Of a stretch of DNA of 32,000 nt, positions 8,454 through 31,074 are shown piece by piece (the first letter of the stretch is position 1; every line of letters starts with the position of its first letter). Where the stretch lies: contig NZ_CP015137.1 in assembly GCF_001644705.1 (NCBI RefSeq), forward strand, positions 2,250,001-2,282,000, in the 5' to 3' direction. This DNA comes from Dickeya solani IPO 2222 (lineage in GTDB: Bacteria > Pseudomonadota > Gammaproteobacteria > Enterobacterales > Enterobacteriaceae). A program made the position numbers and the translations under genes. The notes below the pieces were generated by a model, which was not told the origin of the DNA, ran no database searches, and saw nothing but the letters and a program-made list of their open reading frames with translations.

Positions 8454-8558
8454 GATGCGCGGTCGTTCATCACAGTCGATTCTGATGGCGCCGTGTCGTG
8501 CGCGTCTCAATGCATGACCAGACATTGCGTAACCCGGCGGCAGGGCTGCTAAGCTTAA

Positions 8559-9938
<1,380 letters not shown>

Positions 9939-9976
9939 TCGCGGCCTGAATGTAACGATTGATCTTATGTAACGAC

Positions 9977-10006
9977 AAAAGGGCATTCATCTGGATGCCC
10001 TTTTTT
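9977..10006. terminator. Bidirectional Rho-independent terminator between convergent argG and pecS
   Basis: AAAAGGGCAT-tcatctgg-ATGCCCTTTTTT: a GGGCAT/ATGCCC stem flanked by an A-run and a T-run, so it can serve both strands. Confidence 0.75.
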
Positions 10007-17000: not shown

Positions 17001-18475
17001 GCCGGACCGAAGGCTGGGCCGGATACGTGCATGTGGGACGTAAACTGCAGCGCCTGCAGATGAACCCCCTGAATGTCGGGTTGATGTCTTCCGGCTACAG
17101 CTCGGAAACCGGCAACGATCTGCCCGCCGCCCGCCGCTTCTGGCAGATTCTCGGCCATCGTACCGGGCCATATTATTTCTTTATTGGCGGTCGCATCAGC
17201 GACGAGCAGAAATACAGCGAGGGTATGAAGGAAGACGCCGTGCATATGAAAGGGCCGGCGGAGATGATTCGTGACGACCTGGCGGCGTTCATGCCGGATT
17301 ACATGATGCCGAACAAGGTGCTGATTCTTGACGAGATGCCGCTGACGGCAAACGGCAAAATCGACATGAAAGCGCTGGCGGATATTAATGTCGAGCTTAA
17401 GCACAAAACGATCGTCGCACCCCGTAACCCGCTGGAACATCAGGTCATGGCTGTCTGGCAGGCGAAATTGAAACGTGAGGAGGTGTCGGTGGATGACAAT
17501 TTCTTCGAGTCGGGCGGTAATTCGCTGATCGCCGTCAGCCTGATCAATGAGCTGAACGCGACGTTAAACGCCGGCTTGCCGTTGCAGGTGTTATTTCAGG
17601 CGCCCACCGTTGAAAAACTGGCGGCGTGGCTGAGCTGCGCGCGCCAGGAACCGGTATCCCGTCTGGTTCAACTGCAGCCCAAAGGGCGTCAGGCGCCAGT
17701 CTATTGCTGGCCGGGTTTGGGCGGCTACTGCATGAACCTGCGGCTGCTGGCGCGTCAACTGGGCGCGGAGCGACCGTTCTTCGGCATTCAGGCTCACGGC
17801 ATCAATCCGGGTGAGGCGCCTTATGCCACCATCGGCGAGATGGCAGCCAGAGATATTGAACTGATTCGCCAGCACCAGCCGCACGGGCCTTATACGTTGT
17901 GGGGATATTCTTTCGGCGCGCGCGTCGCGTTTGAAACCGCCTGGCAACTGGAGCTGGCAGGCGAGGTGGTGGACAACCTGTATCTGCTGGCGCCCGGCTC
18001 GCCGAAACTGCGCGATGACCGGGTGGCCGCCATGAGCCGTACGGCGGATTTTGATAACCCCGGTTATCTGACCATCCTGTTCTCGGTATTTATCGGCAGT
18101 ATTACCGACCCAGAGCTGGCGCGTTGTCTGGAAACGGTGCGTGACGAAGAGAGCTTTGTGGCTTTTATCACCGGGCTGAACCCGGCGCTGGATGACGGGC
18201 TGGTCCGGCGGATCACCCGCATTGTGGCGCAAACCTTCGAGTTCACCTACACCTTCAGCGAGCTACAGCAGCGGCAACTGAACGCGCCGGTAACCATCAT
18301 CAAGGCGCAGGGCGACGATTACTCGTTCATCGAGAATCACGGCGGATTTTCCGCCCAGCCGCCTACGGTGCTGGAGCTGATGGCGGACCATTACAGCATG
18401 CTGAAAGCGCCGGGGATCGACGAACTGACGAGCGTCATCCAGTATCAACAGTCGCCTTCCAGCCTGGTGGGATGA
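14009..18475 (+). CDS. indC: Indigoidine synthase IndC: single-module NRPS with an oxidase domain embedded in the adenylation domain (A-Ox-T-TE)
   Basis: 1488 aa. A-domain cores: LAYVIYTSGSTGKPKGV, FDAAQWE, NLYGPTECT, GELYIGGDGVARGY, YQTGD, GRADNQVKLRGYRVELDEI. About 400 aa (YASPGALY..., nitroreductase/FMN oxidase-like) are inserted before A10 (LPLTANGKIDMKAL). Carrier motif FFESGGNSL; thioesterase GYSFG. It lies downstream of indA-indB. Confidence 0.96.
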   Translation: MDNISNHAFNYPVLILNKGLLPDHDDVSLARYLFSALTLAVSRITQNEEMIVGFHLHPQEIACWKDDECLRQHILPLNIRLNSATPIAGFTREIMAWMTPDAIHQKNTVGVSVLTLGSQHALHDVFDLEISWQPPVENQPVRSLTCHVASREEAFVLTLRFNPARFSATQMQKLPEVWRQITTFAAKTGAQTLRDIGLIDDAERQRVLHAFNQTERAWGGEPTIAARLKSRAQRHPEQTAVVFRDGTLSYRQLYQQAGALAHYLNALETARERCVGLFVEPSLALMTGAWGILLSGNAYLPLSPEYPEDRLAYMLENSQTRIIVTQSHLRERLLALAPPGIQVVTSDDVDAFMRQHAHSLPDAPANDIAPHHLAYVIYTSGSTGKPKGVMIEHHSVLNQMNWLAQTFGLNEETVILQKTPMSFDAAQWEILSPACGCRVVMGEPGVYRNPEQLVDMLAEYRVTTLQCVPTLLQALLDTERLTHCPALRQIFSGGEALQKHLAQACLETLPDRELINLYGPTECTINSSAFQVDPASVQQGPDTLSIGAPVANTRYYILDNCLTPVPVGQTGELYIGGDGVARGYLNRDDLTAERFIVDPFAPAGSGRRLYQTGDIASWNHDGTVQYAGRADNQVKLRGYRVELDEIRSAIETHDWVKAAAVIVRNDPFTGYQNLISFIELNAREAALMDQGNHGSHHQSKADKAQVMMQLANKGCREFPAASQPYTLDLPGKQPDEKQRLTAFSRKTYRFYDGGDVSRNDILSLLHEPLLTAISRQPDALTLDELGHWLRYLGQFTSAERLLPKYTYASPGALYATQVFLELNGVAGLAAGHYYYQPVHHQLVRVSEQVSVTPGSLRLHFVGKKSAIEPIYKNNIREVLQMEMGHIIGMLDIVLPDYGLGVALCDAATLDSAPLVINPDDDYLGACDVLSGPRLPADDDLDIYVQTAGANIADLPVGTYRYVRGDLQHIADDVIDKKHVIAINQSVYERSSFGISITSRTEGWAGYVHVGRKLQRLQMNPLNVGLMSSGYSSETGNDLPAARRFWQILGHRTGPYYFFIGGRISDEQKYSEGMKEDAVHMKGPAEMIRDDLAAFMPDYMMPNKVLILDEMPLTANGKIDMKALADINVELKHKTIVAPRNPLEHQVMAVWQAKLKREEVSVDDNFFESGGNSLIAVSLINELNATLNAGLPLQVLFQAPTVEKLAAWLSCARQEPVSRLVQLQPKGRQAPVYCWPGLGGYCMNLRLLARQLGAERPFFGIQAHGINPGEAPYATIGEMAARDIELIRQHQPHGPYTLWGYSFGARVAFETAWQLELAGEVVDNLYLLAPGSPKLRDDRVAAMSRTADFDNPGYLTILFSVFIGSITDPELARCLETVRDEESFVAFITGLNPALDDGLVRRITRIVAQTFEFTYTFSELQQRQLNAPVTIIKAQGDDYSFIENHGGFSAQPPTVLELMADHYSMLKAPGIDELTSVIQYQQSPSSLVG

Positions 18476-18490
18476 GACTGTCGGCATAAC

Positions 18491-18520
18491 GCGCGCGGGG
18501 AGTTCCCCGTGCGCTTTTCT
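18491..18520 (+). terminator. Rho-independent terminator of indC
   Basis: GCGCGCGGGG-agtt-CCCCGTGCGC is a 10-bp stem (one G-U pair) with a 4-nt loop, followed by TTTTCT. It starts 16 nt after the indC stop. Confidence 0.8.
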
Positions 18521-18565
18521 GCGTTGTCCCATTATCAAACCGATTTTTTCGCTGTTTTGTCGACA

Positions 18566-18595
18566 TAATCCCATGTTTTAACGCATTAATCCCAT
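18566..18595 (+). promoter_or_regulatory. Tandem AATCCCAT direct repeat upstream of the KAS III-like gene (candidate activator site)
   Basis: CATAATCCCATGTTTT and CATTAATCCCATTTTT start 21 bp apart. The same tandem motif occurs, in the same orientation relative to its gene, upstream of the AraC-type gene at 23879-23917. Confidence 0.45.
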
Positions 18596-18799
18596 TTTTG
18601 AGATAAACGCATTCTGAAAACAAGGCGACGGCAATTGCGGATAAAAACAAAACTCGTTTGTTGGCAAAGTGTCTGTAGATTGACTGTGCGCGATCATGGG
18701 TCATGAACGGTGTTGCTGCAATTATGGCTTCACTATTAGTGTCATAAGCGTTTGTGCGACATGGGGACGGTAGCCGTGCGAACTTCATCGGAAACCGGC

Positions 18800-19732
18800 A
18801 TGTTTTGCCTTAATGCCATTCATCATGAAGCGCCGGAGCGCATCCGGCGTTTTCCCCTGGGGGAACTGGGGGCTTCGCATCAGCTGCGGGAAGGGCAGCG
18901 CCGCATGATGGAAAAGCTGTATCAACTGAAGACGGTGCCGATGCGCTCCGACAACCATCAGGCGATGCTGGAGTCGGTGGTGGCGGGGCTGGTTGATAGC
19001 TGGCCGACGCTGCCTGCACAGGAAGGGCTGCTGATCTATGCCAAAACGCAGACGCATAACACTTTCTTTGACCGCCACTGGCTGGATGACATTCTGCATC
19101 GCCAGCGGCTGGGGCGCTGGGACGTCACGACGTTCGGTCTGAATCATTGCGCCAGCGCGCTGTCGGCGTTGCATCTGGTGCGGCACAGCGCGGTTCGCCG
19201 GAACAAGCCGGTGCTGTTGTTGACGGGGGAGAAGGCGTTTCACCCTGAAATCAACCGATTCACGGTCGGCGTACAGGGAGAACTGCCGGTGGCGGCGCTC
19301 TTCAATGCGACGAACAGCCCGTGGCAGGTGACGTTTACGGCGGTCAGGCACCTGAGCCGTTTTTATAACAATCCGAGCAATATGACCCGGCAGGAAAAAG
19401 CGGAATTGAATGGCTGCCTGCTGGATGAACTGTGCCGTTTTATTGTCGATGCCGTTAGGGACAGCGGTATAGGCATGGACGAGATGGACTATTTTGTTCC
19501 CTGCAATCTTAATGTCCCGTTATTACGTCAGATGGCGCAACGTTTGAATATGGGCGATCGCTTATTCAGCCAACAGGTTTCTGATTACGGTCATCTGTAT
19601 TGTTCGGACGTTTTATTTAATTTTTCTTCATTAATGAAAACTACAACCGGTCGCGCGAAAAACTATTTTTGTTTTTCGATGGGAATGGGGATCACGCTTT
19701 CCTGCGCGCTGATACAGCAAATTGATATTTAA
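18800..19732 (+). CDS. vfmA: KAS III (FabH)-like thiolase-fold enzyme with a non-canonical active site; first gene of a five-gene operon
   Basis: FabH-like length (about 311 aa from ATG 18800) and motif order: FGLNHCASALSALH (nucleophile Cys), YFVPCNLNVPLL (in place of the FabH PHQAN), DYGHLYCSD (in place of GNTSAAS), C-terminal SMGMGITLSCALI. The start is uncertain (TTG 18752, ATG 18761 and ATG 18800 are all in frame). The symbol is assigned by synteny with the Dickeya vfmAZBCD/E/FGHIJ order as I recall it, not by alignment. Confidence 0.72.
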   Translation: MFCLNAIHHEAPERIRRFPLGELGASHQLREGQRRMMEKLYQLKTVPMRSDNHQAMLESVVAGLVDSWPTLPAQEGLLIYAKTQTHNTFFDRHWLDDILHRQRLGRWDVTTFGLNHCASALSALHLVRHSAVRRNKPVLLLTGEKAFHPEINRFTVGVQGELPVAALFNATNSPWQVTFTAVRHLSRFYNNPSNMTRQEKAELNGCLLDELCRFIVDAVRDSGIGMDEMDYFVPCNLNVPLLRQMAQRLNMGDRLFSQQVSDYGHLYCSDVLFNFSSLMKTTTGRAKNYFCFSMGMGITLSCALIQQIDI

Positions 19733-19745
19733 ACAGGAGACAGAC

Positions 19746-20012
19746 ATGTCTGCGCTATTAATCACTATTCAACAGGCGTTACGCGAAGTCATGGAGAATG
19801 ACGACATCAATATCAGTGAAAAAACGGATTTTGATCATGACCTCGACCTGGACTCGGTGATGTTTGTGCAATTTTTGCTGACGCTTGAAGATAACATCGA
19901 CGGACTGCTGTTCGATCCTGACCAAATCAACATGGATGCCTTCGCCACCGTGGGTAGCCTGATTGGCTGGCTGAATGCCAATGTGTTGCAGGAGGTGCGG
20001 CATGTCAGTTGA
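19746..20012 (+). CDS. vfmZ: Small acyl/peptidyl carrier protein
   Basis: 88 aa from ATG 19746 (AGGAGA 8 nt upstream). Contains the phosphopantetheine-attachment motif DLDLDSVMFVQFLLTLED. The track start at 19722 adds 8 residues. Confidence 0.75.
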   Translation: MSALLITIQQALREVMENDDINISEKTDFDHDLDLDSVMFVQFLLTLEDNIDGLLFDPDQINMDAFATVGSLIGWLNANVLQEVRHVS

Positions 20013-20613
20013 ACGCGTCAAGCAGGTGTGGGAGGTTTTTCGGGATCAGCCGTTGTCCGATGCGCTGACCTGCCTGCTACAACCACCGTCGGAAGAGGCG
20101 CAATACGTTCATCCGATTGGCTATCAGATTCAGGAAATCAGCAGCCTGCCTGACGCCGACCAGCCACAGCGCTTGTTTGACCGGGTGCTGAATCACCTCG
20201 GTCTGGATGCGGTGCGCGGTACGGATACGCTGGCGCTGCCGGCCAGTTTCCCGATACTGGTGTGCGCCGCCCGTCTGGGCGTGCTGGCCCGCATGCAGAC
20301 CATGAGTTGGCAGCATCTGTCCAGCCGTAACAGCTTTGGCACCAAAACCACCCGTCATCAGTTGATCAAAGCCAGCTTCGCCGACGTGGCCGGTAAGGCG
20401 GCGTTGCTGCTGGAACAACAGTATCAGCGTTTGCAGGAGGTCGACCTGGCTGGTCTGGAGGACGATCACTACCAGATCACTCAGCTTAATAACGAAGCGG
20501 AAAAGATGATGGGCGGACACGGTTTCCTGCTGGGCAATACCCACAGCCTGTCCTATTTCTCCATGATGCTCTACAGCATCTATGGCAAGGCGAGCTGTCT
20601 GGCGGCGGCCTGA
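20002..20613 (+). CDS. vfmB: Hypothetical protein with no motif I can recognise; translationally coupled to the carrier protein gene
   Basis: 203 aa from ATG 20002 (AGGAGG at 19990-19995). It overlaps the carrier protein stop by 11 nt. Coding-like composition. Symbol by synteny only. Confidence 0.62.
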   Translation: MSVERVKQVWEVFRDQPLSDALTCLLQPPSEEAQYVHPIGYQIQEISSLPDADQPQRLFDRVLNHLGLDAVRGTDTLALPASFPILVCAARLGVLARMQTMSWQHLSSRNSFGTKTTRHQLIKASFADVAGKAALLLEQQYQRLQEVDLAGLEDDHYQITQLNNEAEKMMGGHGFLLGNTHSLSYFSMMLYSIYGKASCLAAA

Positions 20614-20634
20614 ATACGGAAAAGGATAGCGACG

Positions 20635-21990
20635 ATGAGCCTGATCTCGCGTGTGATGTCCAGAGCCGCCCCGGCTGCGAGCGGGGATGTGCGGCAGATC
20701 ATGGCATTGGCCTGGCCGATGATGGTGACTGCGGTAGTGGTGTCGCTGTCTCAGAATATGCAGATTGCGATTCTGGGCAACGGCACCGAAAGTCAGACGC
20801 TGCTGACGCTGTCCTTTTTGCAGCCGTTCAACTTCCTGTTTATCGCCATTCTGGAATGTCTGGCGATCACCAATCAGGTGTTCAGCGCTCGCTCCCGTCA
20901 TGACTGGCCGCGACAGCGCATCTGGCACAGTACGCTGTGGCTCGGGGGCGCCGGCGTGCTGATGACGGCGCTGGCGGCGCTGTTGTGCCGGGTACTGGCA
21001 TTGCCGCTGTCCGGCTGGATGAACAGTCCGGATCTGGCGTGGATGCAGCGCGCCGCGCCCGGGTATCTGCTGTCGATGACGCCGTTTCTGGTGCTGGAAA
21101 TGTGCAACGCGGCGCTGCGTGGGCAGGGGCGAACCGTGCCGGCCATGACGCTAATGTGTGCCTATGTGCTGCTGAACGCCGCGGGCTGTTACCTGGGTTT
21201 TCACGTCTACCAGCTTGGTTTGGATGCCGTGCTGCTGGCAAACAGCGTTCCGGCGCTGGTGCTGCTGCCGTTGGCGGTGCGTGCGCTGCGTCGGATCGCC
21301 ACACCGGTGGCGGATGAACGGCCGCAGGCGTTCGCGCCTCGCCTGCTGGCGTTGCTGACCAACGCCGGGTTGCCGGTATGCTTTTCCATGCTGGTGGTGT
21401 TCGTCAGTTCGATGGTGATTTTTCCACTGGTGGCTGCGCTGGGGGCGGGATTTTTGCCCGCGTTCCTGATCGTGATAAAGCTGCGGGCTTTCTTCATCAT
21501 TCCGGCGGTGGCGACCGGTTCCGCCATCGCTATTCTGCTGAACCAGCGCCTCAAAACCCATGCCGCGCCGCTGCTGGCGAGCCTGCTGAATAATGGCGTG
21601 TGGCTTATCGCGCTGGTCTATCTGGCGTTGACCGTCGGTGTCTGCTGGGTGCGTGACGGTATTCTGGCCGGGTTCTCCAATGACGAGGCGATCCGCCAGT
21701 CTAGCCAGACGCTGCTGTTGCTGTTGCTGCCGACGTTTTTCCTCACCTCGCTGGTGGCGGCGCTGCAAACGCTGCTGGAACAGATGGAACGGGGAAAACG
21801 GGTGCTGGTTTTCACGCTGGTGCTGGAACTGCTGATGGTGGCGGTCGCGCTGATTGCGCATCGTTACTTTAACGATGTGCAGGCGATCGCCGGTCTGATG
21901 GTGGCGTTTAGCCTGCTGTACGCCGCGGTGTTCCTGCGTGAGTACCGGTTGCTGGCCAGCGCGCTGGGAGAACGGGATGCTGCTGTATAG
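20635..21990 (+). CDS. vfmC: MATE/MOP-superfamily efflux protein
   Basis: 451 aa with about 12 hydrophobic segments and a MATE-like N-terminus (RQIMALAWPMMVTAVVVSLSQNMQIAILGN). AAAGGA lies 8 nt upstream of the ATG. Confidence 0.75.
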   Translation: MSLISRVMSRAAPAASGDVRQIMALAWPMMVTAVVVSLSQNMQIAILGNGTESQTLLTLSFLQPFNFLFIAILECLAITNQVFSARSRHDWPRQRIWHSTLWLGGAGVLMTALAALLCRVLALPLSGWMNSPDLAWMQRAAPGYLLSMTPFLVLEMCNAALRGQGRTVPAMTLMCAYVLLNAAGCYLGFHVYQLGLDAVLLANSVPALVLLPLAVRALRRIATPVADERPQAFAPRLLALLTNAGLPVCFSMLVVFVSSMVIFPLVAALGAGFLPAFLIVIKLRAFFIIPAVATGSAIAILLNQRLKTHAAPLLASLLNNGVWLIALVYLALTVGVCWVRDGILAGFSNDEAIRQSSQTLLLLLLPTFFLTSLVAALQTLLEQMERGKRVLVFTLVLELLMVAVALIAHRYFNDVQAIAGLMVAFSLLYAAVFLREYRLLASALGERDAAV

Positions 21991-23065
21991 TCTGTGCTAT
22001 CCCTTGATGTGGTTGGCGACCCTCGTCCAGTACAACTACTACCGCGTACTGGTGAAGTTCAAGCGCCGCCCGTCGCTGCTGCTTAAAGTGCGGATCAAGC
22101 CGGAAACGCATTACATCCGGCTGTGCCGCGCGTTGCGTCTGGCGGATTTGTGGTTGCTGGAGCGCTGTTCTCTGCATCTGGCGGCTCGCTATCTGCTGCA
22201 CCTGTTCGAAACCACGCGTTATATCTCTTACAAGCAGATGGACCACGAATATCTGGCCGGTTTTCGGCAGGAGACGGTCTGTTTTCAGCACCAGAACGTG
22301 TATGTGTTTCGCTGGGTGCCGCCGCCGGCGGGCGCGCCGGCAAAAACCGTCTTGCTGGTGCATGGTTGGGAGGGGCGCGGCATTATGTTCCGGCCGCTGT
22401 GCGAGGCGCTAAAAGCGCAGGGATACGGCGTAGTGATGCCGGATCTGCTGGCGCACGGGTTGTCTGAGGGAAAGCGGGTATCCAACTATGAGCTGGCCAG
22501 TCTGCTTATCCGGCTGGGGCAGCGCTACGGCCCGTTCTGTGCGGTGGTCGGGCATTCCAGCGGCGGTCTGGTGTGTAGCCTGGCGCTGGCGCAGGGACTG
22601 GCGGCGGAGCGGCTGGTGCTGCTGGCCAGTCCGGACAATTTCGGCAAGATGATCGATCGGTTTCTGGCGGGCGCTTCGGTGTCGGCGTCGTTGGCGGCGC
22701 CCATGAAAGCGATTTATGCGCAACGCTTTGGCTTTCATCCCGATCAGGTCGGCGAAGCGCTCTACCGCATGCTCGATTGTCCGGCGCTGATTTGCCACGA
22801 CTGGCAGGATGTTCGTGTCCATCCGGAGGTGGCGGACGAGATCCACCGGGCGTTTGCCCGCAGCGACGTGTTCTATACCCGTGGGCTGGGGCATCTGGGG
22901 ATTTTACGCAGCCCCCAGGTACACCAGCGCATTCTGTCGTTCTTATCTGACGCCGGAGTGGGAACTGAAAGGCAGATACCGCCACTCATTCAGCATTCGA
23001 TCATGCCTGATGACGCGGATCCGCCGCGGTACGGTCCGATACCGGTGGCATCAAAGCGGGCATGA
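21977..23065 (+). CDS. vfmD: Alpha/beta-fold hydrolase (Ser-Asp-His) with an ~110-aa N-terminal extension
   Basis: VLLVHGWEGRG (oxyanion region), nucleophile elbow GHSSGG, and later D (HDWQD) and H (GLGHLG). ATG 21977 (GGAGA upstream) overlaps the MATE gene stop. The track start at 21938 is less likely. Confidence 0.72.
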   Translation: MLLYSLCYPLMWLATLVQYNYYRVLVKFKRRPSLLLKVRIKPETHYIRLCRALRLADLWLLERCSLHLAARYLLHLFETTRYISYKQMDHEYLAGFRQETVCFQHQNVYVFRWVPPPAGAPAKTVLLVHGWEGRGIMFRPLCEALKAQGYGVVMPDLLAHGLSEGKRVSNYELASLLIRLGQRYGPFCAVVGHSSGGLVCSLALAQGLAAERLVLLASPDNFGKMIDRFLAGASVSASLAAPMKAIYAQRFGFHPDQVGEALYRMLDCPALICHDWQDVRVHPEVADEIHRAFARSDVFYTRGLGHLGILRSPQVHQRILSFLSDAGVGTERQIPPLIQHSIMPDDADPPRYGPIPVASKRA

Positions 23066-23096
23066 TATCGCAGTCGGGCGTTGACGCATCAGGCGC

Positions 23097-23119
23097 GCCC
23101 GCCATCGATGACGGCGGGC
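23097..23119. terminator. GC-rich hairpin between the convergent hydrolase and AraC-type genes
   Basis: GCCCGCC, a 9-nt loop, then GGCGGGC: a perfect 7-bp stem with no strong U-tract. Confidence 0.4.
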
Positions 23120-23128
23120 TATCGGCGT

Positions 23129-23692
23129 TTAATTGCAGAGATTCTGGATATTATCCAGCAGTACGTGACGTGAGAACAGGTGGCGCTGTTTGCCGAAAAT
23201 AATATCGAAGCTCATGTTTTGCAGGGTGCGAGGCTGTTCGTTTTCCCGTTCCAGCGAGACCGCTTTGCGATACTTCAGCGGCGGAATGTTGTAGGTCTTG
23301 GTAAAACAACGGGAAAAATGCGGCAGCGAAGAAAAACCGCAGGCGTAGCAAATATCGGTGAGCGACCAATTGGGCGAAATATGAATGATCTCTTTTGCCA
23401 GCGTCAGGCGTACACGCCAAATCCAGCGCATCGGCGTAATGTTATAGACCTGATTGAAAAGACGGCAAATATCAAATTTTGATTTACCGCTGACGTCTTC
23501 AAGATCTTCCAGCGTAATATTGTTACCGATATTGTCGATGATATAGTCAATAATTCCCGCCAGGCTGGTCGCTTTATTATTGGCTGCGAGCGTTTTGCGC
23601 AAATTAGGGTGACGGCGGTACATATCCTGAATCAGATTGTTGTTGAAAATATCGTTATCCAACGTATGGGCGTAAGTGTTCTGTAAGCTCAT
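23129..23692 (-). CDS. vfmE: Small AraC/XylS-family transcriptional regulator
   Basis: 187 aa from the first ATG (23692). The track start at 23743 is TTG. AraC-type double HTH: ITLEDLEDVSGKSKFDICRLFNQVYNITPMRWIWRVRLTLAKEII...SLTDICYACGFSSLPHFSRCFTKTYNIPPLKYRK. There is no large ligand domain. The gene is AT-richer than its neighbours. Confidence 0.8.
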   Translation of the reverse strand: MSLQNTYAHTLDNDIFNNNLIQDMYRRHPNLRKTLAANNKATSLAGIIDYIIDNIGNNITLEDLEDVSGKSKFDICRLFNQVYNITPMRWIWRVRLTLAKEIIHISPNWSLTDICYACGFSSLPHFSRCFTKTYNIPPLKYRKAVSLERENEQPRTLQNMSFDIIFGKQRHLFSRHVLLDNIQNLCN

Positions 23693-23810
23693 GGTGTCAT
23701 CCCAAAAAAATAGATTCCCCGTGTCTGGTCCGGCTAAATCCAAAAATCCTTACAGCGGCGAAGTCAGTGGTTAATTATTGTCCTTTGGTCAGATGTGCGA
23801 TCTGTCTAAC

Positions 23811-23825
23811 GCAAATTGTGTGCCA
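23811..23825 (-). promoter_or_regulatory. Near-consensus sigma54 (-24/-12) promoter directed at the AraC-type gene
   Basis: The minus strand reads aTGGCACacaatTTGCg, an exact match to the TGGCAC-N5-TTGC core. It is about 120 nt upstream of ATG 23692. A sigma54-dependent activator is encoded 4 kb away. Confidence 0.7.
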
Positions 23826-23878
23826 TGTTGTTAATGGTTGTTTTTCAAGGGAAATACTTACACCTACCTGTAACTCAT

Positions 23879-23917
23879 CCCATTAATGGGATTGAGCCGT
23901 GCCAAACATGGGATTTT
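23879..23917 (-). promoter_or_regulatory. Candidate upstream activator sites: 14-bp palindrome plus a second AATCCCAT copy
   Basis: The minus strand reads AAAAATCCCATGTTTGGCACGGCTCAATCCCATTAATGGGA. The AATCCCAT copies are 22 bp apart. The proximal one is part of the perfect palindrome TCCCATTAATGGGA (23879-23892). It lies 55-90 bp upstream of the sigma54 -24 element, the usual position for enhancer-binding-protein sites. Confidence 0.45.
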
Positions 23918-24066
23918 TCGTCTCGCAAATGACAATCTGGATGAGCTACCCTGCCACGAGCCGGGGGGAGCACGCCGTGCCGGTGGGAGGCTGTGACGTC
24001 TGCATCGGCTGCTGGAGGCCGCCGTCAGCCCGACGAGCGGGTCACCGACCGTGATCAGGATGTAAT

Positions 24067-24081
24067 TGGTATGATTTGTGC
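24067..24081 (+). promoter_or_regulatory. Weak candidate sigma54-type promoter facing the ABC-transporter operon
   Basis: TGGTAT-GATTT-GTGC keeps the GG-N10-GC spacing but departs from the consensus at several positions. Confidence 0.22.
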
Positions 24082-24327
24082 TGTTAATTAGAGGACGCGG
24101 GAGGACGCGGAACCGATGTTCGCGAAGATCATGCGCGTGCTGTCTGACGCAGATGAACGGGAAACGGCATGGAGAGCCAGTCAACGCAAGGAAAGGGCGT
24201 CGTCATGGACAGGTGGGGGTATTTTGGACACATTTTTAAAACCAGAGATAAAAGTGAGTGGCCTGCAGCCTGTAAGATACCCTCGGCCTTAGGAAGGCCG
24301 ACTCTATTTATACACTGAGGATTTCCC

Positions 24328-25035
24328 ATGACGGTGCTGGTTCAACTTGATAATGTGCATAAAATCTTTCTTACCGATGAAATTGAAACGCATGCCCTTA
24401 GCAAGATAAACCTTTCTATTCACTCGGGAGAATACGTCTCTATCGCGGGACCGTCCGGCTGTGGGAAATCGACACTGTTGTCCATCATGGGGTTGCTGGA
24501 CACGCCAACGGAAGGGCGTTACCGGCTGAACGGCACGGATGTTGAACGCATCGGCCGTCGGGAGATGGCTCGTCTGCGCAACCGGGAAATCGGCTTTATC
24601 TTTCAGTCGTTTAATCTGATAAGCGACCTGACTATCGCGGAAAACGTTGCGTTGCCGCTCACTTACCGCAATGACCTGTCGCGATCGGAGCAGAAAGCGC
24701 GGGTCGTCCAGGCGTTGGAAAAAGTCAACATGTCGCATCGGGTGCGGCACTACCCGTCACAGCTTTCCGGCGGTCAGCAACAGCGCGTGGCAGTGGCGCG
24801 CGCCATTGTCGGCAAGCCGTCGTTGCTGCTGGCGGACGAACCGACCGGGAATCTGGATTCCGCCAACGCTGAAGCGGTGATGAATATTCTGGATGAGTTA
24901 CATCAGGACGGCGCGACCATCTGCATCGTTACCCACGATCCGCGTTCCGCCATGCGCGCCCAGCGCACCATTGTGCTGTCTGACGGGCAGGTGGTGGCCG
25001 ATGGCGAAAACGGACAATTGCGTCAGGCGGTATAA
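24328..25035 (+). CDS. vfmF: MacB/LolD-type ABC transporter ATP-binding protein
   Basis: 235 aa: Walker A GPSGCGKSTLL, signature LSGGQQQRVAVARA, Walker B LLLADEPTGNLD. GAGG lies 7 nt upstream of the ATG. Confidence 0.88.
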   Translation: MTVLVQLDNVHKIFLTDEIETHALSKINLSIHSGEYVSIAGPSGCGKSTLLSIMGLLDTPTEGRYRLNGTDVERIGRREMARLRNREIGFIFQSFNLISDLTIAENVALPLTYRNDLSRSEQKARVVQALEKVNMSHRVRHYPSQLSGGQQQRVAVARAIVGKPSLLLADEPTGNLDSANAEAVMNILDELHQDGATICIVTHDPRSAMRAQRTIVLSDGQVVADGENGQLRQAV

Positions 25036-25039
25036 CACG

Positions 25040-27475
25040 ATGAATTTATGGTTCGATATCCGTTACGCTCTGCGCCTGCTGCTCAAAAGCCCTGGATTCA
25101 GCGTGCTGACCATTACCGTGATGGCCTGCGGACTGGGGCTGGCGCTGTATATGTATTCCGTCATCAACACCATCATGTACAAAACCCTGCCGTATCCGAA
25201 GGGGGAAGGCATGGTGATGGTGACGCCGAATGTGGGTGGAGTGAGTCTTGATGACTCAGGTTTGAATTTCCTTGATTATACAGAGCTTTCTCGTCAACTG
25301 ACCAAGATAGACGATGTCGGATATTTTTATGCTGAGTATTTGGATCTTAATGATGGAAAAAGATCTGTTAGGTATATAGGTATCCTCAGCACACCCCAGA
25401 TGTTTGATTATACTGGTGTATCACCGTTAATCGGGCGTGTTTTGAATGATAGCGATATGTTGTCTGGGTCAGTACCTGTTACGGTAATTAGTTATGACCT
25501 ATGGGAAAATTACTTTAACGGCAGAAAGGACATTCTTAACCAATCGGTACAGATAAATGGTGTGCGTACTTATATTGTTGGCGTTATGCCTAAAGGTTTT
25601 GCATTTCCATTTTTTCATGACCTGTGGTTGCCATCAAAAATAAAGTTACAATCTTTCTCTCTGAGAAATGAGGCACCAGAGGTTTATGTTTATGCTCATT
25701 TAAATCCTCGATTCTCCCTGGATGAGGCTAATCAGGAAATTGCATCCGTAATGGAACGGCTGGCTGATAAATATCCAGAAAGCAATAAAGGAATTTCAGC
25801 GATAGCACTTTCCTTTCAAGTCAGCTTTATGGGCGATGATACTGCTCAGGTGTTTCTTATTACTCTATCTGCTGTGGCATTTGTTCTATTATTAGCCTGT
25901 TGTAATGTGGGGAATTTGCTTTTATCTCGCTCTCATCAGCGTACGAGAGAGATTGCAGTACGTGTCGCTTTAGGTTCACCCATGATTCGGTTGGTCATGC
26001 AAATGTTATGGGAGAGCTTAATTATATGTATCCTGGCTGGAATTGTCGGGGTATTGCTTGCGGCTTGGGGATTGGATTTAACAAATACGATATTTCCCCG
26101 CTTTGTTCCTAATCGTGTGCCATCCTGGTGGCATTTATCACTTGACGGCAGCATGATCCTGAATGCGGGCATTTTAGTGATTGTCACCGCATTCATTACT
26201 GGTGCATTACCTGCCTGGAAAATTGCTAATGGTCAATTTTTTCAGGCGCTAAGGGATGGCTCCCGTGGTATACCCGGTTATCGAACCAGTAAGGCTGGAC
26301 GTTCATTAGTCATTATTGAGGTGGCACTCTCTTTTTCAATTTTATGCATTAGTATCTTATTGTTAATTTTAGTGACAAAGGCGAAAAATGCAGACTATGG
26401 GGTGGCAACTGATGGCTACCTTATATCTCGCGTCAATCTTAATAAAGATGTTTACCCTAATGTGCAAAGCAGACGTGACTTTTATCTGGAATTATCTAAA
26501 CAATTACATGATATACCCGGCATAACTGCCGAATCGCTTACAACCAGTGCTCCGGGTGAATTCACAGCTGCTCATCAGCTTCTTATTGAAAACAGAGAAG
26601 ATGGAAGTAATGGTGATGAGCATTATCCCATGGTGAATGATGTGCAAGTCATGCCAGGAGGCCTTGCAGGGATGGGCGTCAAAGTGATTTATGGTCGTGA
26701 ATTTTCAGCATTGGATAATGAAAAATCGCCTCCTGCGGCTGTAATCAGCGAATCGCTAGCTAGAAAGTATTGGCCTGATGGAAAAAGTGCAATTGGCAAA
26801 CGCGTCCGTTTTAGAAACGAGGAAGATTCTGGTTGGTATACAATAATCGGTGTTGTAACCCATGTTGTACATGGCAGGCCGTTTAGTGCGTTCAAAAATC
26901 GTTCAACAGTCTATCGTTCACTATTACAACGACCCACGCCCATGATGACTATTATGCTTAAGGCTGAGCATCTTTCTGCTTTGCCTGAGAAGCTCAAAAT
27001 CGCGCTATATAACGTTGATAGTATGATGCCGGTGGCGCCGCCTCAAACGTTAAACAATATGCTTGAAAGAAATACGCTTGGTGTCAGGTTCGTCGCTAAT
27101 TTATTCATGCTGTTTGGGATTATTGCAATAGTGCTCTCATCCAGTGGTATCTATGCCGTGACACAAAATGCAATCAGCCAACGAACCCAAGAAATAGGTA
27201 TCCGGCAGGTACTGGGGGCGACCCCTAGCCATTTACTTAAAATGTTGATGTTACAAGGGGTGAACCAACTTATTGCTGGTTTGATACTGGGATTACCCTT
27301 GGCATTGCTGGCTGCCCCCGGAATTAACCGCGCTTTAGGCGATGGCAGAGGCCATTTTGTGTTGCTGTTTGTCTGCGTCGCTTTATTTCTCATGCTCATC
27401 GTCGCGCTCGCCACCTGGATCCCGTCCCGACGCGTCATCATGATGAAACCGGGTGATGCGATACGTTATGAATAA
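25040..27475 (+). CDS. vfmG: MacB/FtsX-type ABC permease with duplicated FtsX modules
   Basis: 811 aa from ATG 25040, which is 4 nt after the ATPase stop. N-terminal MNLWFDIRYALRLLLKSPGFSVLTI is typical of large duplicated FtsX permeases. There are two FtsX-type segments (IAVRVALGSPMIRLV...; IGIRQVLGATPSHLL...). The track start at 24893 lies inside the ATPase gene and is rejected. Confidence 0.85.
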   Translation: MNLWFDIRYALRLLLKSPGFSVLTITVMACGLGLALYMYSVINTIMYKTLPYPKGEGMVMVTPNVGGVSLDDSGLNFLDYTELSRQLTKIDDVGYFYAEYLDLNDGKRSVRYIGILSTPQMFDYTGVSPLIGRVLNDSDMLSGSVPVTVISYDLWENYFNGRKDILNQSVQINGVRTYIVGVMPKGFAFPFFHDLWLPSKIKLQSFSLRNEAPEVYVYAHLNPRFSLDEANQEIASVMERLADKYPESNKGISAIALSFQVSFMGDDTAQVFLITLSAVAFVLLLACCNVGNLLLSRSHQRTREIAVRVALGSPMIRLVMQMLWESLIICILAGIVGVLLAAWGLDLTNTIFPRFVPNRVPSWWHLSLDGSMILNAGILVIVTAFITGALPAWKIANGQFFQALRDGSRGIPGYRTSKAGRSLVIIEVALSFSILCISILLLILVTKAKNADYGVATDGYLISRVNLNKDVYPNVQSRRDFYLELSKQLHDIPGITAESLTTSAPGEFTAAHQLLIENREDGSNGDEHYPMVNDVQVMPGGLAGMGVKVIYGREFSALDNEKSPPAAVISESLARKYWPDGKSAIGKRVRFRNEEDSGWYTIIGVVTHVVHGRPFSAFKNRSTVYRSLLQRPTPMMTIMLKAEHLSALPEKLKIALYNVDSMMPVAPPQTLNNMLERNTLGVRFVANLFMLFGIIAIVLSSSGIYAVTQNAISQRTQEIGIRQVLGATPSHLLKMLMLQGVNQLIAGLILGLPLALLAAPGINRALGDGRGHFVLLFVCVALFLMLIVALATWIPSRRVIMMKPGDAIRYE

Positions 27476-27634
27476 ACGGGAGCATACCGACTGGCGCTCC
27501 AGTTTCCCGCAACAGAGCCGTTAATAGTTACCACGGATCGATTATGCTGTAAGAGGCGATCGCAGCGGGAGCGCTCCTGCGGCGGTGCCTGTCAGTGTGA
27601 AATTTCAGTATCAACCCGCGTGATAAGGACCCCT

Positions 27635-29035
27635 ATGGCGGATAAGCAACATATCCTGATTGTTGATGATGACGCGCATATTCTGGCCAGCCTGCAGATG
27701 TTACTGTCCATGGAAGGCTATCAGGTCACACTCGCTTCTGCCGTTGAACAGGTGCCCGTTCAGTTGTCCCAGCATGATTTCGATTTGATCCTGATGGATA
27801 TGAACTATCAACGGGATACCACGTCCGGGCAGGAAGGGCTGGTGTTGCTGGAAGAGATAAAGCGTTACGACGAGTACCTGCCGGTGGTGGCGATGACCGG
27901 CTGGGGTAGCGTCGATATTGCGGTGAGCGCCATGCAGGCGGGCGCGGTGGATTTTATTCAGAAACCCTGGGACAACGAGCGGTTGCTGAATGTGATTCGC
28001 CAGCAGATCTCCTTCAGCCTCAGCCAGCGTTCCGGCAAACGGCTGAAAGAAGAAAACAAGCTGCTGAAGCTGGAACTGGAAGACAATTTCAATGGCGAGT
28101 GGGTGGTGGAGTCCGCGCCGATGAAACAATTGATGCGGGTAGTGGAGCAGGTGGCTGCAACCGAGACCAACATCCTGATTCTGGGTGAGAATGGCACCGG
28201 CAAAAGCCTGCTGGCCCGGGTCATTCATCAGCTTTCTCCGCGCCGTGACGAGAACATGGTGTCGGTAAACATGGGCTGCATCAACGAAAATCTGTTTGAA
28301 AGCGAGATGTTCGGCCATGTGAAAGGCGCGTTCACCGACGCCCGGGAAAGCCGCGTCGGGCGTTTCGAACTGGCGGACAAAGGGACGCTGTTTCTGGATG
28401 AGATCGGCAACCTGCCGATGACCCAACAAAGCAAGCTGCTGCGTATTCTGGAAGAACGCTGTTTTGAGCGGGTTGGCTCGTCCCGTACGCTAAAAACCAA
28501 TTGCCGTATTATTGCCGCCACCAACGCTGAACTGGACGTCAGAGTGGCGGAAGGGACGTTTCGTCAGGATCTCTATTACCGCTTCAATACCATTGAGTTA
28601 CGTGTGCCGTCACTGGTGGAACGGCAGCAGGACATCATGCCGCTGGCGTTGAATTTCATTGATCGCTATGCCAGAAAATACAATAAGCCGGCGCCGGGAC
28701 TTAGCCCGTCTGGACAGGCGGCGCTGTCGGGTTACCATTGGCCGGGTAATATCCGCGAACTGAGTCATTTGCTGGAGCGGGCGGTGTTGCTGTGCGGATC
28801 ATCCCGGCTGAACAGTGACGATATTTTTCCGTCACTGCCTGCCGCGCCGCAAAAAGTGGCGAAAGCCGAGCCGGAACTGGCTTCCGATGCGACGCTGGCC
28901 GATATTGAAGAACGCCTGCTGTGTCAGCGTATGGCGAAGTTTGAGGGCAACGCCGTTAAGGCTGCCCATTCGCTGGGGCTGAGTCGCAGTGCGTTTTACC
29001 GACGACTGGAAAAATACAAGATTAACCATGAGTAA
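27635..29035 (+). CDS. vfmH: Sigma54-dependent response regulator (NtrC family: REC - AAA+ - Fis-type HTH)
   Basis: 466 aa from ATG 27635 (AAGGA 6 nt upstream). REC domain (ILIVDDD...LILMDMNY), Walker A GENGTGKS, sigma54-contact loop ESEMFGHVKGAFTDA (a GAFTGA variant), C-terminal HTH AAHSLGLSRSAFYRRLEKY. Confidence 0.9.
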   Translation: MADKQHILIVDDDAHILASLQMLLSMEGYQVTLASAVEQVPVQLSQHDFDLILMDMNYQRDTTSGQEGLVLLEEIKRYDEYLPVVAMTGWGSVDIAVSAMQAGAVDFIQKPWDNERLLNVIRQQISFSLSQRSGKRLKEENKLLKLELEDNFNGEWVVESAPMKQLMRVVEQVAATETNILILGENGTGKSLLARVIHQLSPRRDENMVSVNMGCINENLFESEMFGHVKGAFTDARESRVGRFELADKGTLFLDEIGNLPMTQQSKLLRILEERCFERVGSSRTLKTNCRIIAATNAELDVRVAEGTFRQDLYYRFNTIELRVPSLVERQQDIMPLALNFIDRYARKYNKPAPGLSPSGQAALSGYHWPGNIRELSHLLERAVLLCGSSRLNSDDIFPSLPAAPQKVAKAEPELASDATLADIEERLLCQRMAKFEGNAVKAAHSLGLSRSAFYRRLEKYKINHE

Positions 29036-30347
29036 ACTCGACTCCTCCTTTGAGCCTCCTCACCTGTTGTCATTCAATGTCGCAGCGATTGCCGGCTTGC
29101 TGGGGTATTTCCTGCTATGGCTGTTTCCCGACCAGTCGGTGTACCTGAAAATACTGACGGTATTCATTATTTTCCTGTGTCTGGTCTACAGCAGCTTTAC
29201 ATTTTCCGAGCGACTGAACGGCAAGATCCACGTCGTGTCCAACCTGTTGGAAGCGCTGGAACAGGAAAACTTCAGCCTGCGCGGTGTTACCAAGGACAAA
29301 GGCGCGTTTGATAACCTGATCCGCCAGATTAACCAGCTTTCCGGCACGATGGCGCGCAGCCGTCAGCAGCAAAAAGAAACCTACTATGTGCTGCACAAGG
29401 TGATCTCCAATATCAATATCAGCGTGTTCGCGCTGGATGCGGAGCGGCGCATCATCTGGTGCAACGACGCGGCGGCGGCGCTGGTCAACAAACCGCTATC
29501 GTTGCTGGTGGGACAACCGGCGGCGGAGTTCGGGCTGGAAGGGTTGTTGCAGCAGCCGTCCGATGCCGAGCCGGTCGACTGGCGCTTCCCCGGCACACGG
29601 GGAATGTTCCAGATTCGTCACGATTCCTTTATCGAAGACGGCCGGCAAAACCACCTGTTATTCATCAGCGATGTGAGCAAGCTGTTGCGTAACGAGGAGC
29701 AGAAAACCTGGCAGAACCTGCTGCGGGTGATCAGCCATGAGATCAACAACTCGCTGACGCCGATTGCCTCTATCAGCCAGACGCTGTTGCAGGTGTTCCG
29801 TAAGGATAATCAGCATCAGGCGGCGCCGGATTTGGTCAACGGCATGGAGATCATCAACAATCGCGCCCGCGAACTGATTACTTTTGTCGGCAGTTATCGT
29901 CAGTTGAACCGCCTGCCGCCGGCCAACAAACAGCCCTGCGATATCGCCGGGTTGATGATGCAAATGGCGATGCTGTTCCCACAGCGCAAACTGGTCCTTT
30001 CCGGGGACGCGCCGCAGCAGGCGATGGTCGATGCCAATCAGATGCAGCAGATGTTCATCAACTTATTGAAAAACGCCGATGAAGCGATGGCGCCCGGGCA
30101 GGGTGAAATCGTGCTGCGCTGGAAGGTGATTGCCCGGCAACTGCATATCGAGATTATCGACCAAGGCAAAGGGGTGGCGAATATCGAAAACCTGTTCGTG
30201 CCGTTTTATACCACCAAGACACATGGCAGCGGCATCGGACTGATTCTGTGCCGGCAGATTGTCGAAGGCCATGACGGGCATCTGACGCTGGAGAACCGTA
30301 AGGATGCAGAAGGTTGTGTCGTCAATATCTTCCTGCCGCTGGGATGA
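29028..30347 (+). CDS. vfmI: Sensor histidine kinase (two N-terminal TM helices, PAS-like region, HisKA, HATPase_c)
   Basis: 439 aa from ATG 29028, which overlaps the regulator stop (ATGAGTAA). H-box RVISHEINNSLTPI, N-box NLLKNADEA, G1 DQGKG, G2 GSGIGL. The track start at 28989 lies inside vfmH. Confidence 0.88.
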   Translation: MSKLDSSFEPPHLLSFNVAAIAGLLGYFLLWLFPDQSVYLKILTVFIIFLCLVYSSFTFSERLNGKIHVVSNLLEALEQENFSLRGVTKDKGAFDNLIRQINQLSGTMARSRQQQKETYYVLHKVISNINISVFALDAERRIIWCNDAAAALVNKPLSLLVGQPAAEFGLEGLLQQPSDAEPVDWRFPGTRGMFQIRHDSFIEDGRQNHLLFISDVSKLLRNEEQKTWQNLLRVISHEINNSLTPIASISQTLLQVFRKDNQHQAAPDLVNGMEIINNRARELITFVGSYRQLNRLPPANKQPCDIAGLMMQMAMLFPQRKLVLSGDAPQQAMVDANQMQQMFINLLKNADEAMAPGQGEIVLRWKVIARQLHIEIIDQGKGVANIENLFVPFYTTKTHGSGIGLILCRQIVEGHDGHLTLENRKDAEGCVVNIFLPLG

Positions 30348-31074
30348 CCTGGCGGCGAGAACATGGCCGTATCCCCACTGTGTTGTAGTACCGCGTGCGC
30401 AGCTGGCGTGCCCGGCAATCGTCGCTCAGGCTCGTCAGGCCTGCGGCATGTCGCCGGATGTGGCGTTGGCGTCCCGCCAACTGGCGGAAGGCATGCTGCG
30501 TACCTTGCTGGCGCCGCTGTGTCAGCAAGAGGCCGCCGCATTACGCTTTGAGCGTAACCCGCATGGCAAACCGTTTTTGCCACAGCATCCGACAATTCAG
30601 TTCAATCTATCCCACACTCATAGCGCCTTTGCTTTTGCGTTTGCGCGCCACAGCGCGGTGGGTGTGGATGTGGAAAGCTGTCAGGGTCATGTGGACCGTA
30701 AGCGGTCAGTGGCCAGACGTTTCTTTCACCCTGACGAAATCCGCTGGCTGGATGCGTTTGATGACGTGCGATTCCTGCCGGCGTTCACCTGCTTGTGGAA
30801 CCGCAAAGAGGCTTATATCAAAGCGCTGGGGTTAGGGTTGCACAAATCGCTGGCATCGTTCAGCTGCCTGGCCGACAGTCAGGGGGCTATTCGGGTGGCG
30901 GATACCGGACAGATTAGCGATTGCCGGCTGGATGAAGCGTGGATTGCGGGGGAGCCGTCCGTCGCGCTCAGCTGCTGCCTTTTCCCCGCGAAATCGACCG
31001 AGCCGGATGCATGGCGCCTGCTGATACTGCGGGATGACGCGCCGGAAAACCGCGCATCGCTTCAGCAGCCGTGA
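30304..31074 (+). CDS. vfmJ: Sfp/EntD-type 4'-phosphopantetheinyl transferase
   Basis: Motifs GKPFL...IQFNLSHTH, GVDVES and WNRKEAYIKALGLGL. The start is uncertain: ATG 30304 overlaps the kinase gene by 44 nt, and the next in-frame ATG (30448) would remove conserved N-terminal sequence. Confidence 0.8.
   Translation: MQKVVSSISSCRWDDLAARTWPYPHCVVVPRAQLACPAIVAQARQACGMSPDVALASRQLAEGMLRTLLAPLCQQEAAALRFERNPHGKPFLPQHPTIQFNLSHTHSAFAFAFARHSAVGVDVESCQGHVDRKRSVARRFFHPDEIRWLDAFDDVRFLPAFTCLWNRKEAYIKALGLGLHKSLASFSCLADSQGAIRVADTGQISDCRLDEAWIAGEPSVALSCCLFPAKSTEPDAWRLLILRDDAPENRASLQQP

Follow-up and report, generated by a model that had tools for sequence, protein, structure and literature searches.

In silico analysis of a 32-kb stretch of DNA of Dickeya solani IPO 2222 (contig NZ_CP015137.1, positions 2,250,001 to 2,282,000; hereafter the window) indicated, with high confidence, that positions 18476-31074 of this stretch are the vfmAZBCD-vfmE-vfmFGHIJ part of the D. 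solani Vfm (virulence factor modulating) quorum-sensing cluster. The locus is the left half of a well-studied cluster; the system was already known, and what is reported here is its renewed recognition. Its eleven genes, i.e., vfmAZBCD (+), vfmE (-) and vfmFGHIJ (+), directly follow pecS-pecM-indABC, as judged from the open reading frame (ORF) listing and Pfam matches (Table 1).

Identity of the vfm locus

An exact-sequence look-up of ten of the predicted proteins was made against a collection of 15 billion proteins. Each of the ten proved identical to a D. solani entry, the entries carrying consecutive accessions (ANE75562-ANE75571), and the source names of five of these matches are VfmB, VfmD, VfmE, VfmH and VfmI. 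Identity to the appropriate proteins of D. dadantii 3937 amounts to 94.2% (VfmD), 97.9% (VfmE), 99.6% (VfmH) and 99.3% (VfmI). From indB to the gene located after vfmJ the window is colinear with D. undicola (88% DNA identity) and D. oryzae (82-84%), in both of which the vfm genes stand in the same order, matching the published maps (PMC7912708, PMC9306890). Because of the exact D. solani protein matches, the identities to strain 3937 and the colinear DNA alignment, the locus is regarded as the orthologue of the published vfm cluster, and nothing was found that speaks against this identity. The NCBIfam collection contains no Vfm-specific models and returned generic families, all under their cut-offs except ADOP for VfmG; the gene naming therefore rests on the exact-sequence look-up. 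An Rfam scan of the whole window matched no known RNA.

The original prediction, made from the sequence without database searches, had placed eleven ORFs in this region. All of them are present at the positions given, the best starts (chosen by upstream context) yield the 88, 203 and 187 aa named for vfmZ, vfmB and vfmE, and Pfam supports every domain call. The overlapping or tight gene spacing is seen at vfmZ/vfmB (11 nt), vfmC/vfmD (14 nt) and vfmH/vfmI (8 nt), and the indigoidine genes indA, indB and indC are indeed the immediate upstream neighbours, ending at 18475. The assignment to Vfm, which was to be abandoned if the proteins showed no similarity to Dickeya Vfm proteins, met with the opposite outcome, i.e., exact matches for 10/10 proteins, 94-99.6% identity to strain 3937 and the published gene order. 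The separation from LuxI/LuxR and LuxS systems holds as well, since none of the 11 proteins matches the Pfam families of acyl-homoserine lactone synthases, LuxR-type receptors or LuxS. Other claims have to be qualified. The three transcription units describe the layout correctly, but are a simplification, since an indC-vfmAZBCDFG read-through transcript, antisense to vfmE, was reported in D. dadantii (PMC9239193). The term "self-contained" is an overstatement, as the main biosynthetic operon lies outside the coordinates proposed, and the extent of the cluster is right for the eleven genes but omits a DUF2807 gene (31062-31709, -), most likely vfmX.

The Vfm system was reportedly defined by Nasser et al. 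in 2013 in D. dadantii 3937 and comprises 26 genes, vfmA-vfmZ. Virulence depends on this system in D. dadantii, D. oryzae, D. zeae and several D. solani strains (PMC8860905), and an extracellular, density-dependent signal activating vfmE and virulence genes was described in D. dadantii, D. oryzae and D. solani strains (PMC8860905, PMC9306890, PMC9765074). In D. solani MK10, vfmG insertions alter solanimycin production (PMC9765074), and cyclic di-GMP is bound by VfmE and VfmH (PMC9045272, PMC10714721). The structure of the signal was unsolved as of 2022-2023 (PMC9306890, PMC10616651), in agreement with the original prediction; the latest explicit statement dates from October 2023, and no later report of the structure was found in the searchable literature. 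Vfm is the dominant virulence switch of the Dickeya soft-rot pathogens, which makes the locus important for the biology of these bacteria, but its renewed detection in D. solani DNA is not in itself a new result. The additions made here are incremental: (i) a candidate VfmH operator, (ii) a family-wide GAFTDA motif of VfmH and (iii) complete Vfm-type clusters in Lonsdalea and Vibrio spartinae.

The biosynthetic operon adjoining the window

The right flank, located outside the window, was viewed on D. solani contigs carrying an identical DUF2807 gene. Outward from vfmJ, these contigs encode the DUF2807 protein, a ketoacyl-acyl carrier protein synthase III (KAS III), a 285-aa protein, an acyl-CoA dehydrogenase, another KAS III, a 170-aa protein, another acyl-CoA dehydrogenase, a glyoxalase, a pair of AMP-binding proteins, a PP-binding protein of 102 aa and a third AMP-binding protein, the three AMP-binding proteins and the PP-binding protein being situated within 10 kb. 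The amino-acid-activating enzymes that had been predicted beyond position 32000 are thus present, and the locus adjoins an operon containing three adenylation proteins and genes of the oxoacyl-acyl carrier protein (ACP) synthase type. In the published cluster, vfmW encodes an oxoacyl-ACP synthase, vfmM/O/P encode adenylation proteins and vfmX encodes a hypothetical protein (PMC9306890). On the basis of the gene order on the contigs, matched to these functions, the DUF2807 gene is most likely vfmX, with the operon running from vfmW back to vfmM.

VfmG, VfmI and signal sensing

VfmG passes the NCBIfam model TIGR03434 (ADOP) with 627.1 bits (cut-off 622.3 bits) over residues 3-811. It stands apart from its neighbours in comparison with D. 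undicola: VfmG shares 62.8% identity with its counterpart (and 89% with that of D. oryzae), whereas VfmF, VfmE, VfmH and VfmI are 97-100% identical (VfmI 98%). The GC content within vfmG (25001-27000) is 43%, vs. 55-62% in the neighbouring genes. D. solani IPO 2222 was previously classified in Vfm group III, D. undicola 2B12 in group IV and D. dadantii 3937 in group I; recombining vfmG alleles have been published, and it is these, and not vfmI, that follow the vfmO/P signal groups (PMC9306890). The variable segment of vfmG (Table 1) is consistent with these allele groups, which it reproduces without adding to them.

A hydropathy scan of VfmI revealed two N-terminal hydrophobic segments (residues ~12-34 and ~35-61) with the short linker PDQSV between them; the kinase is devoid of a periplasmic domain, which makes VfmG the likely sensor. 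A role of VfmG as a Bce-like co-sensor of VfmI is a published hypothesis (PMC9306890). The layout is that of a Bce-type module, in that a two-helix kinase without an extracytoplasmic domain adjoins an FtsX-domain ABC permease; the protein families are different, VfmG belonging to ADOP and not BceB, and VfmH being of the NtrC and not the OmpR type. Alternatively, VfmFG could be purely a signal exporter, with VfmI sensing the signal directly within the membrane and no co-sensor involved. Reviews annotate VfmFG as an export system (PMC7912708, PMC9765074), MacB/ADOP-type transporters are typically exporters, and contact between VfmG and VfmI has not yet been shown by any experiment (PMC9306890). 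We nevertheless consider this arrangement unlikely, if a serious contender, since the loop between the membrane helices of VfmI has only 5 residues, VfmI is nearly constant within the very species pair in which VfmG diverges, the signal groups are followed by the alleles of vfmG and not by vfmI, and a separate MATE exporter, VfmC, is also encoded.

Disrupted vfm genes were noticed on one D. solani contig (L010; GCA_013339845, JABAOP010000001), on which vfmG is in three pieces (200, 498 and 75 aa), vfmC in two, one adenylation gene is split in two and an acyl-CoA dehydrogenase forms a fusion with the adjacent protein. These disruptions reflect either natural vfm decay or assembly frameshift errors.

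The vfmE promoter and a candidate VfmH operator

The sigma-54 promoter that had been predicted upstream of vfmE, TGGCACACAATTTGC, is the sole exact match to the sigma-54 consensus in the window, in which ~0.06 would be expected (10 fixed bases, two strands). A single copy of this 15-mer, equally distant from vfmE, is present in each of 7/7 related loci (D. undicola, D. oryzae and five of Lonsdalea), and its columns are invariant in the Dickeya/Lonsdalea alignment while the adjoining bases diverge. Transcription is predicted to start near 23799, which would give a 5' untranslated region (UTR) of ~107 nt; no good sigma-70 promoter was found in the region upstream of vfmE. Between Dickeya and Lonsdalea no change is seen in the ATG of vfmE (23692) or in its ribosome-binding region, whereas the upstream TTG frame varies.

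This promoter is preceded by two AATCCCAT boxes with a spacing of 22 bp, whose centres lie ~90 and ~112 nt upstream of the predicted start of transcription; the proximal one lies within a perfect palindrome, ATCCCATTAATGGGAT (23877-23892). The conserved Dickeya blocks upstream of vfmE are AATCCCATGTTTGGCAC, at ~112 nt, and AATCCCATTAATGGGAT, at ~90 nt, and in Lonsdalea the box reads ATCCCAA. A second pair, 21 bp apart, is located upstream of vfmA; its second box lies within a near-palindrome, ATCCCATTTTTGAGAT, and the pair is kept in D. undicola and D. oryzae. The four copies of the 8-mer in the window occur exclusively upstream of vfmE (two) and vfmA (two), although the motif count by itself is not significant (3 palindrome-like matches vs. 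1.3 expected). According to a review summarising Nasser 2013, VfmH binds and activates the vfmE and vfmA promoters (PMC7912708). Because they are located at precisely the two promoters reported to be VfmH-bound, the paired boxes are proposed as a candidate VfmH operator, which would be a concrete testable detail.

An IHF (integration host factor)-like site, AATTAACCACTGA, was also distinguished, in a block conserved in the Dickeya/Lonsdalea alignment. In D. zeae MS2, IHF binds the vfmE promoter at AATCAACCACTGA, -99 to -73 from the start codon (PMC9452768), and the site in the window is one base off the published one. Upstream of vfmA and vfmF no sigma-54 element was detected at ≤1 mismatch; a conserved block upstream of vfmA, TTGGCAAAGT, was rejected as a sigma-54 promoter, as it is devoid of the -12 GC.

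The predicted 5' UTR of vfmE (23693-23800, -) is strongly conserved from Dickeya to Lonsdalea and has several GGA motifs in the vicinity of its ribosome-binding site, i.e., AAGGA, TTGGA and GGGATGACACCATG. As a speculation, these motifs might hint at post-transcriptional control, e.g., by RsmA.

VfmH, a GAFTDA-type activator

VfmH is composed of the Response_reg, Sigma54_activat and HTH_8 domains of Pfam, and its sigma-54 contact loop reads GAFTDA instead of GAFTGA (residues 231-236; window positions 28325-28342). GAFTDA was found in 132 of the 134 closest VfmH relatives retrieved, which range from 99% to ~50% identity and come from many genera, and also in the VfmH homologues of Lonsdalea and V. 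spartinae. Its retention in relatives down to ~50% identity indicates a selected, family-wide trait rather than a local defect or decay.

In D. dadantii, VfmH is needed for vfmE promoter activity (PMC10714721). Sigma-54-dependent activation of vfmE by VfmH is most likely the mechanism, and it is favoured because of the family-wide GAFTDA and the invariant -24/-12 element; both speak against a loss of sigma-54 contact by VfmH, a doubt raised in the literature.

The VfmH of D. poaceiphila (group V) is only 64% identical to that of D. solani, which is the level observed for regulators of Rahnella, Serratia microhaemolytica and Pantoea. The system of D. poaceiphila is hence much more distant than those of other Dickeya.

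Proposed signalling circuit

The following circuit may be proposed for the locus: (i) synthesis, in which VfmJ would phosphopantetheinylate the carrier proteins, and VfmA, VfmZ, VfmB and VfmD would act together with the convergent vfmY/K-W operon to the right of the window, to give, as the annotations suggest, a small extracellular signal made from amino acids and a fatty-acyl part; (ii) export, probably via VfmC and/or VfmFG; (iii) sensing, in which, according to the published hypothesis, the ABC permease VfmG would serve as a co-sensor of VfmI, as in Bce-type modules, a step supported by the co-variation of vfmG alleles with the biosynthetic alleles; (iv) relay, in which phosphorylated VfmH is predicted to bind the paired boxes and to activate the sigma-54 promoter of vfmE, its requirement for vfmE being published and the sigma-54 route being suggested by the invariant -24/-12 element; and (v) output, in which VfmE would activate all vfm operons (positive feedback) and the genes for enzymes that degrade plant cell walls, as published for D. 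dadantii.

Several observations weigh against parts of this circuit. The roles of VfmA, VfmZ, VfmB and VfmD are annotation-based, the signal never having been isolated. Natural null mutants of vfmC and vfmX still signal (PMC9306890), and both genes are therefore dispensable. The IHF-like site is located downstream of the sigma-54 element and not between enhancer and promoter. The region upstream of vfmA has no recognisable sigma-54 element, although VfmH reportedly activates vfmA. Finally, VfmH pull-downs did not recover sigma-54, for which the G-to-D change in GAFTDA was considered a possible reason by the authors (PMC10714721).

The last two points, together with the action of VfmH with CRP at pelD (PMC10714721), would fit a system in which the sigma-54 motif of vfmE is unused and VfmH activates this gene via sigma-70 or another route. 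Such a bypass is improbable: the 15-nt element of vfmE is exact, unique in 32 kb and invariant between diverging flanks, the conservation of GAFTDA points to a selected variant rather than decay, the candidate enhancer boxes stand at the usual distance of ~90-112 nt, and a good sigma-70 promoter was not found upstream of vfmE. An antibiotic or toxin as the product of the locus, instead of a signal, with the pumps providing resistance and the regulator dedicated to the pathway, is very hard to credit despite carrier-protein chemistry, two exporters, a dedicated 4'-phosphopantetheinyl transferase (PPTase) and a pathway-specific AraC regulator being the usual content of a secondary-metabolite cluster, as culture supernatants activate vfmE reporters in a strain-group-specific manner in published biosensor work (PMC9306890, PMC8860905), vfm mutants lose virulence-enzyme production, and the window proteins are identical to those of the species tested.

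Vfm-type clusters outside Dickeya

Reviews describe the Vfm cluster as unique to Dickeya (PMC8860905, PMC10616651), and a Vfm cluster split into two loci was reported in Prodigiosinella (bioRxiv 10.1101/2023.09.17.558112). A search with VfmB returned relatives (39-53% identity) in Lonsdalea, several Vibrio (including V. europaeus, V. lentus, on a plasmid, and V. splendidus), Aeromonas hydrophila, Xenorhabdus vietnamensis and a Pectobacteriaceae strain. Homologues of vfmA, Z, B, C, D, F, G, H and I are encoded, at 37-66% amino acid identity, on a Lonsdalea contig (L011; LUSY01000035, 1-20266) and in V. spartinae (L012; CP046268, 1-20658), the latter additionally containing vfmE and vfmJ. In both, a divergent operon encodes an Orn/DAP decarboxylase, three adenylation enzymes, a carrier protein and an acyl-CoA dehydrogenase.

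In the Lonsdalea loci L003-L007 (e.g., L004, 7305-12336), vfmE (85% amino acid identity) and a vfmJ-like PPTase gene (~50%) are located beside argG, apart from the main cluster; in Dickeya, pecS-pecM-indABC-vfmAZBCD lies between argG and vfmE. This argG-side vfmE retains the identical sigma-54 element, and the accompanying vfmW-like KAS III shares 56% identity with the KAS III adjoining the DUF2807 gene. The genome scan with VfmE, which needs exact peptide words, gave two Dickeya species only, so that the absence of other Dickeya from its results is meaningless.

These clusters qualify the "unique to Dickeya" statements and provide comparative material for the signal structure. It may tentatively be suggested, with the doubts slightly prevailing, that Vfm-type circuits represent a wider, undescribed family of gammaproteobacterial autoinducer systems, combining carrier proteins and free-standing adenylation enzymes with a GAFTDA activator acting via sigma-54, with the AATCCCAT pairs as the operator in Dickeya. 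If so, the distant clusters could be easier hosts for isolating the signal.

Comparison with known systems

The closest known system is Vfm of D. dadantii 3937, the orthologous locus of a sister species, with the same genes, order, orientation and indABC neighbours, highly identical VfmD, VfmE, VfmH and VfmI, and the remainder of the cluster to the right. It belongs to a different Vfm group from that of IPO 2222 (see above), and differences are to be expected in the variable part of vfmG and in the signal analogue (PMC9306890). The Vfm of Prodigiosinella aquatilis occurs outside Dickeya and, as in Lonsdalea, has vfmE and vfmJ apart from the main cluster; its operon arrangement is different, whereas the cluster of the window is contiguous (bioRxiv 10.1101/2023.09.17.558112).

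Three further systems resemble Vfm in particular aspects. The Bce modules of Firmicutes (BceAB, BceS, BceR) share with it a kinase without an extracytoplasmic sensor, adjoining an FtsX-domain permease that has large extracytoplasmic domains and is the likely detector of the ligand (an analogy drawn in PMC9306890), but they use the BceB permease, an OmpR-type regulator and an antibiotic ligand, whereas Vfm uses an ADOP permease, an NtrC-type regulator and a self-made signal; the likeness would be an analogy of mechanism only. The staphylococcal Agr system also relies on two-component sensing, positive feedback and allelic groups with co-varying biosynthesis and receptor genes (PMC9306890). It differs in its ribosomal peptide, bound directly by a polytopic kinase, and has no sequence relationship to Vfm, in which the chemistry is non-ribosomal and carrier-protein-dependent and the variable partner is the ABC permease. 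LuxO of Vibrio is an NtrC-type sigma-54 activator in a quorum-sensing relay and an NCBIfam relative of VfmH, which nevertheless fails the LuxO equivalog model (295 bits, cut-off 800). LuxO drives small RNAs at low cell density, whereas VfmH drives an AraC activator in response to the signal.

Annotation of the window

The start codon of vfmA is not settled, because sequence conservation continues upstream of the ATG at 18800 (310 aa): a GTG at 18776, preceded by GGGGA, would give 318 aa, and database annotations are of 310, 318, 323 and 329 aa. No match for VfmA was found in a PDB sequence search. In VfmB the similarity to acyl-CoA dehydrogenases is limited to their C-terminal helical domain, the protein marginally passing Acyl-CoA_dh_1 (23.1 vs. 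22.4 bits), its match among PDB sequences being a marginal one to MCAD; its relatives are confined to Vfm-type clusters. The best NCBIfam relatives of VfmF are DarD, LolD and MacB, all under their cut-offs. On D. solani contigs, vfmJ is called as 256 or 252 aa (the latter if the start is GTG 30316), and its tblastn matches show 81% (D. undicola) and 73% (D. oryzae) identity.

Table 1. Genes and regulatory elements distinguished in the window.
Feature	Position	Strand	Evidence
argG, argininosuccinate synthase, 449 aa	8589-9938	+	Pfam
MarR regulator (pecS of the classical pecS/pecM pair)	10052-10552	-	Pfam
EamA transporter (pecM), divergent from the MarR gene	10906-11799	+	Pfam
indA, Indigoidine_A	12142-13092		Pfam
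indB, HAD hydrolase	13104-13796		Pfam
indC, 1488-aa adenylation-thiolation-thioesterase synthetase	14009-18475		Pfam
Intrinsic-terminator-like hairpin, left border of the vfm locus	18491-18514	+	Directly 3' of the indC stop (18475)
Two AATCCCAT boxes upstream of vfmA, candidate VfmH site	18567-18574, 18588-18595 (region 18567-18604)	+	Sequence
vfmA, KAS III-like enzyme, 310 aa	18800-19732	+	Exact match ANE75562.1; Pfam ACP_syn_III_C (38.7 bits)
vfmZ, acyl/peptidyl carrier protein, 88 aa	19746-20012	+	Exact match to D. solani acyl carrier protein; Pfam PP-binding
vfmB, 203 aa	20002-20613	+	Exact match to "VfmB protein [Dickeya solani]"
vfmC, efflux transporter of the MATE family, 451 aa	20635-21990	+	Exact match; Pfam MatE
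vfmD, alpha/beta-fold hydrolase, 362 aa	21977-23065	+	Exact match named VfmD; Pfam Abhydrolase_6/_1
vfmE, AraC-family master activator, 187 aa	23129-23692	-	Exact match to "AraC family transcriptional regulator VfmE"; Pfam HTH_18/AraC
IHF-like site AATTAACCACTGA	23776->23764	-	One base off the D. zeae MS2 vfmE-promoter IHF site
Predicted sigma-54 (-24/-12) promoter of vfmE, TGGCACACAATTTGC	23825->23811	-	Exact TGGCAC-N5-TTGC
Candidate upstream activating sequence of vfmE	23877-23915	-	Two AATCCCAT boxes, 23915->23908 and 23893->23886
vfmF, MacB/LolD-type ABC ATPase, 235 aa	24328-25035	+	Exact match; Pfam ABC_tran (124 bits)
vfmG, ADOP-family duplicated FtsX permease, 811 aa	25040-27475	+	Exact match; two periplasmic MacB_PCD and two FtsX domains
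Hypervariable low-GC allele segment of vfmG	25635-27071	+	No DNA alignment to D. undicola
vfmH, NtrC-type sigma-54-dependent response regulator, 466 aa	27635-29035	+	Exact match named VfmH
vfmI, histidine kinase, 439 aa	29028-30347	+	Exact match named VfmI; Pfam HATPase_c, HisKA, weak PAS
vfmJ, Sfp-type PPTase, 256 aa	30304-31074	+	Pfam ACPS (61.5 bits), weak AASDHPPT_N
DUF2807 protein, 215 aa, convergent with and overlapping vfmJ	31062-31709	-	Pfam DUF2807

The left border of the vfm locus is marked by the terminator-like hairpin following indC, which has a 10-pair stem with 9 G-C pairs followed by TTTTCTGCGT and is kept in D. undicola and D. oryzae. It alone was retained from the scan of the window for sigma-70 promoters and terminators, in which the counts were not above those in shuffled sequence. 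A 520-aa ORF (8424-9986, -) is considered spurious, since Pfam returned nothing for it and argG is encoded on the other strand; in comparison with Lonsdalea, the DNA of this region is 82% identical, yet the minus-frame protein only 63%.

The centre of the 635-bp vfmE-vfmF spacer (23931-24219) is G+C-rich and conserved in D. undicola, and is not alignable with D. oryzae. Two spacer ORFs, 24117-24293 (58 codons) and 23864-24184 (106 aa, antisense), were rejected, since this segment is unconserved in D. oryzae and D. solani contigs have no gene called there. A terminator-like hairpin, TCGGCCTTAGGAAGGCCGA followed by CTCTATTTAT (24283-24301, +), is situated at the end of the spacer, 27 nt before the vfmF start, and the spacer also contains a tandem duplication, GAGGACGCGG x2, at 24091-24110.

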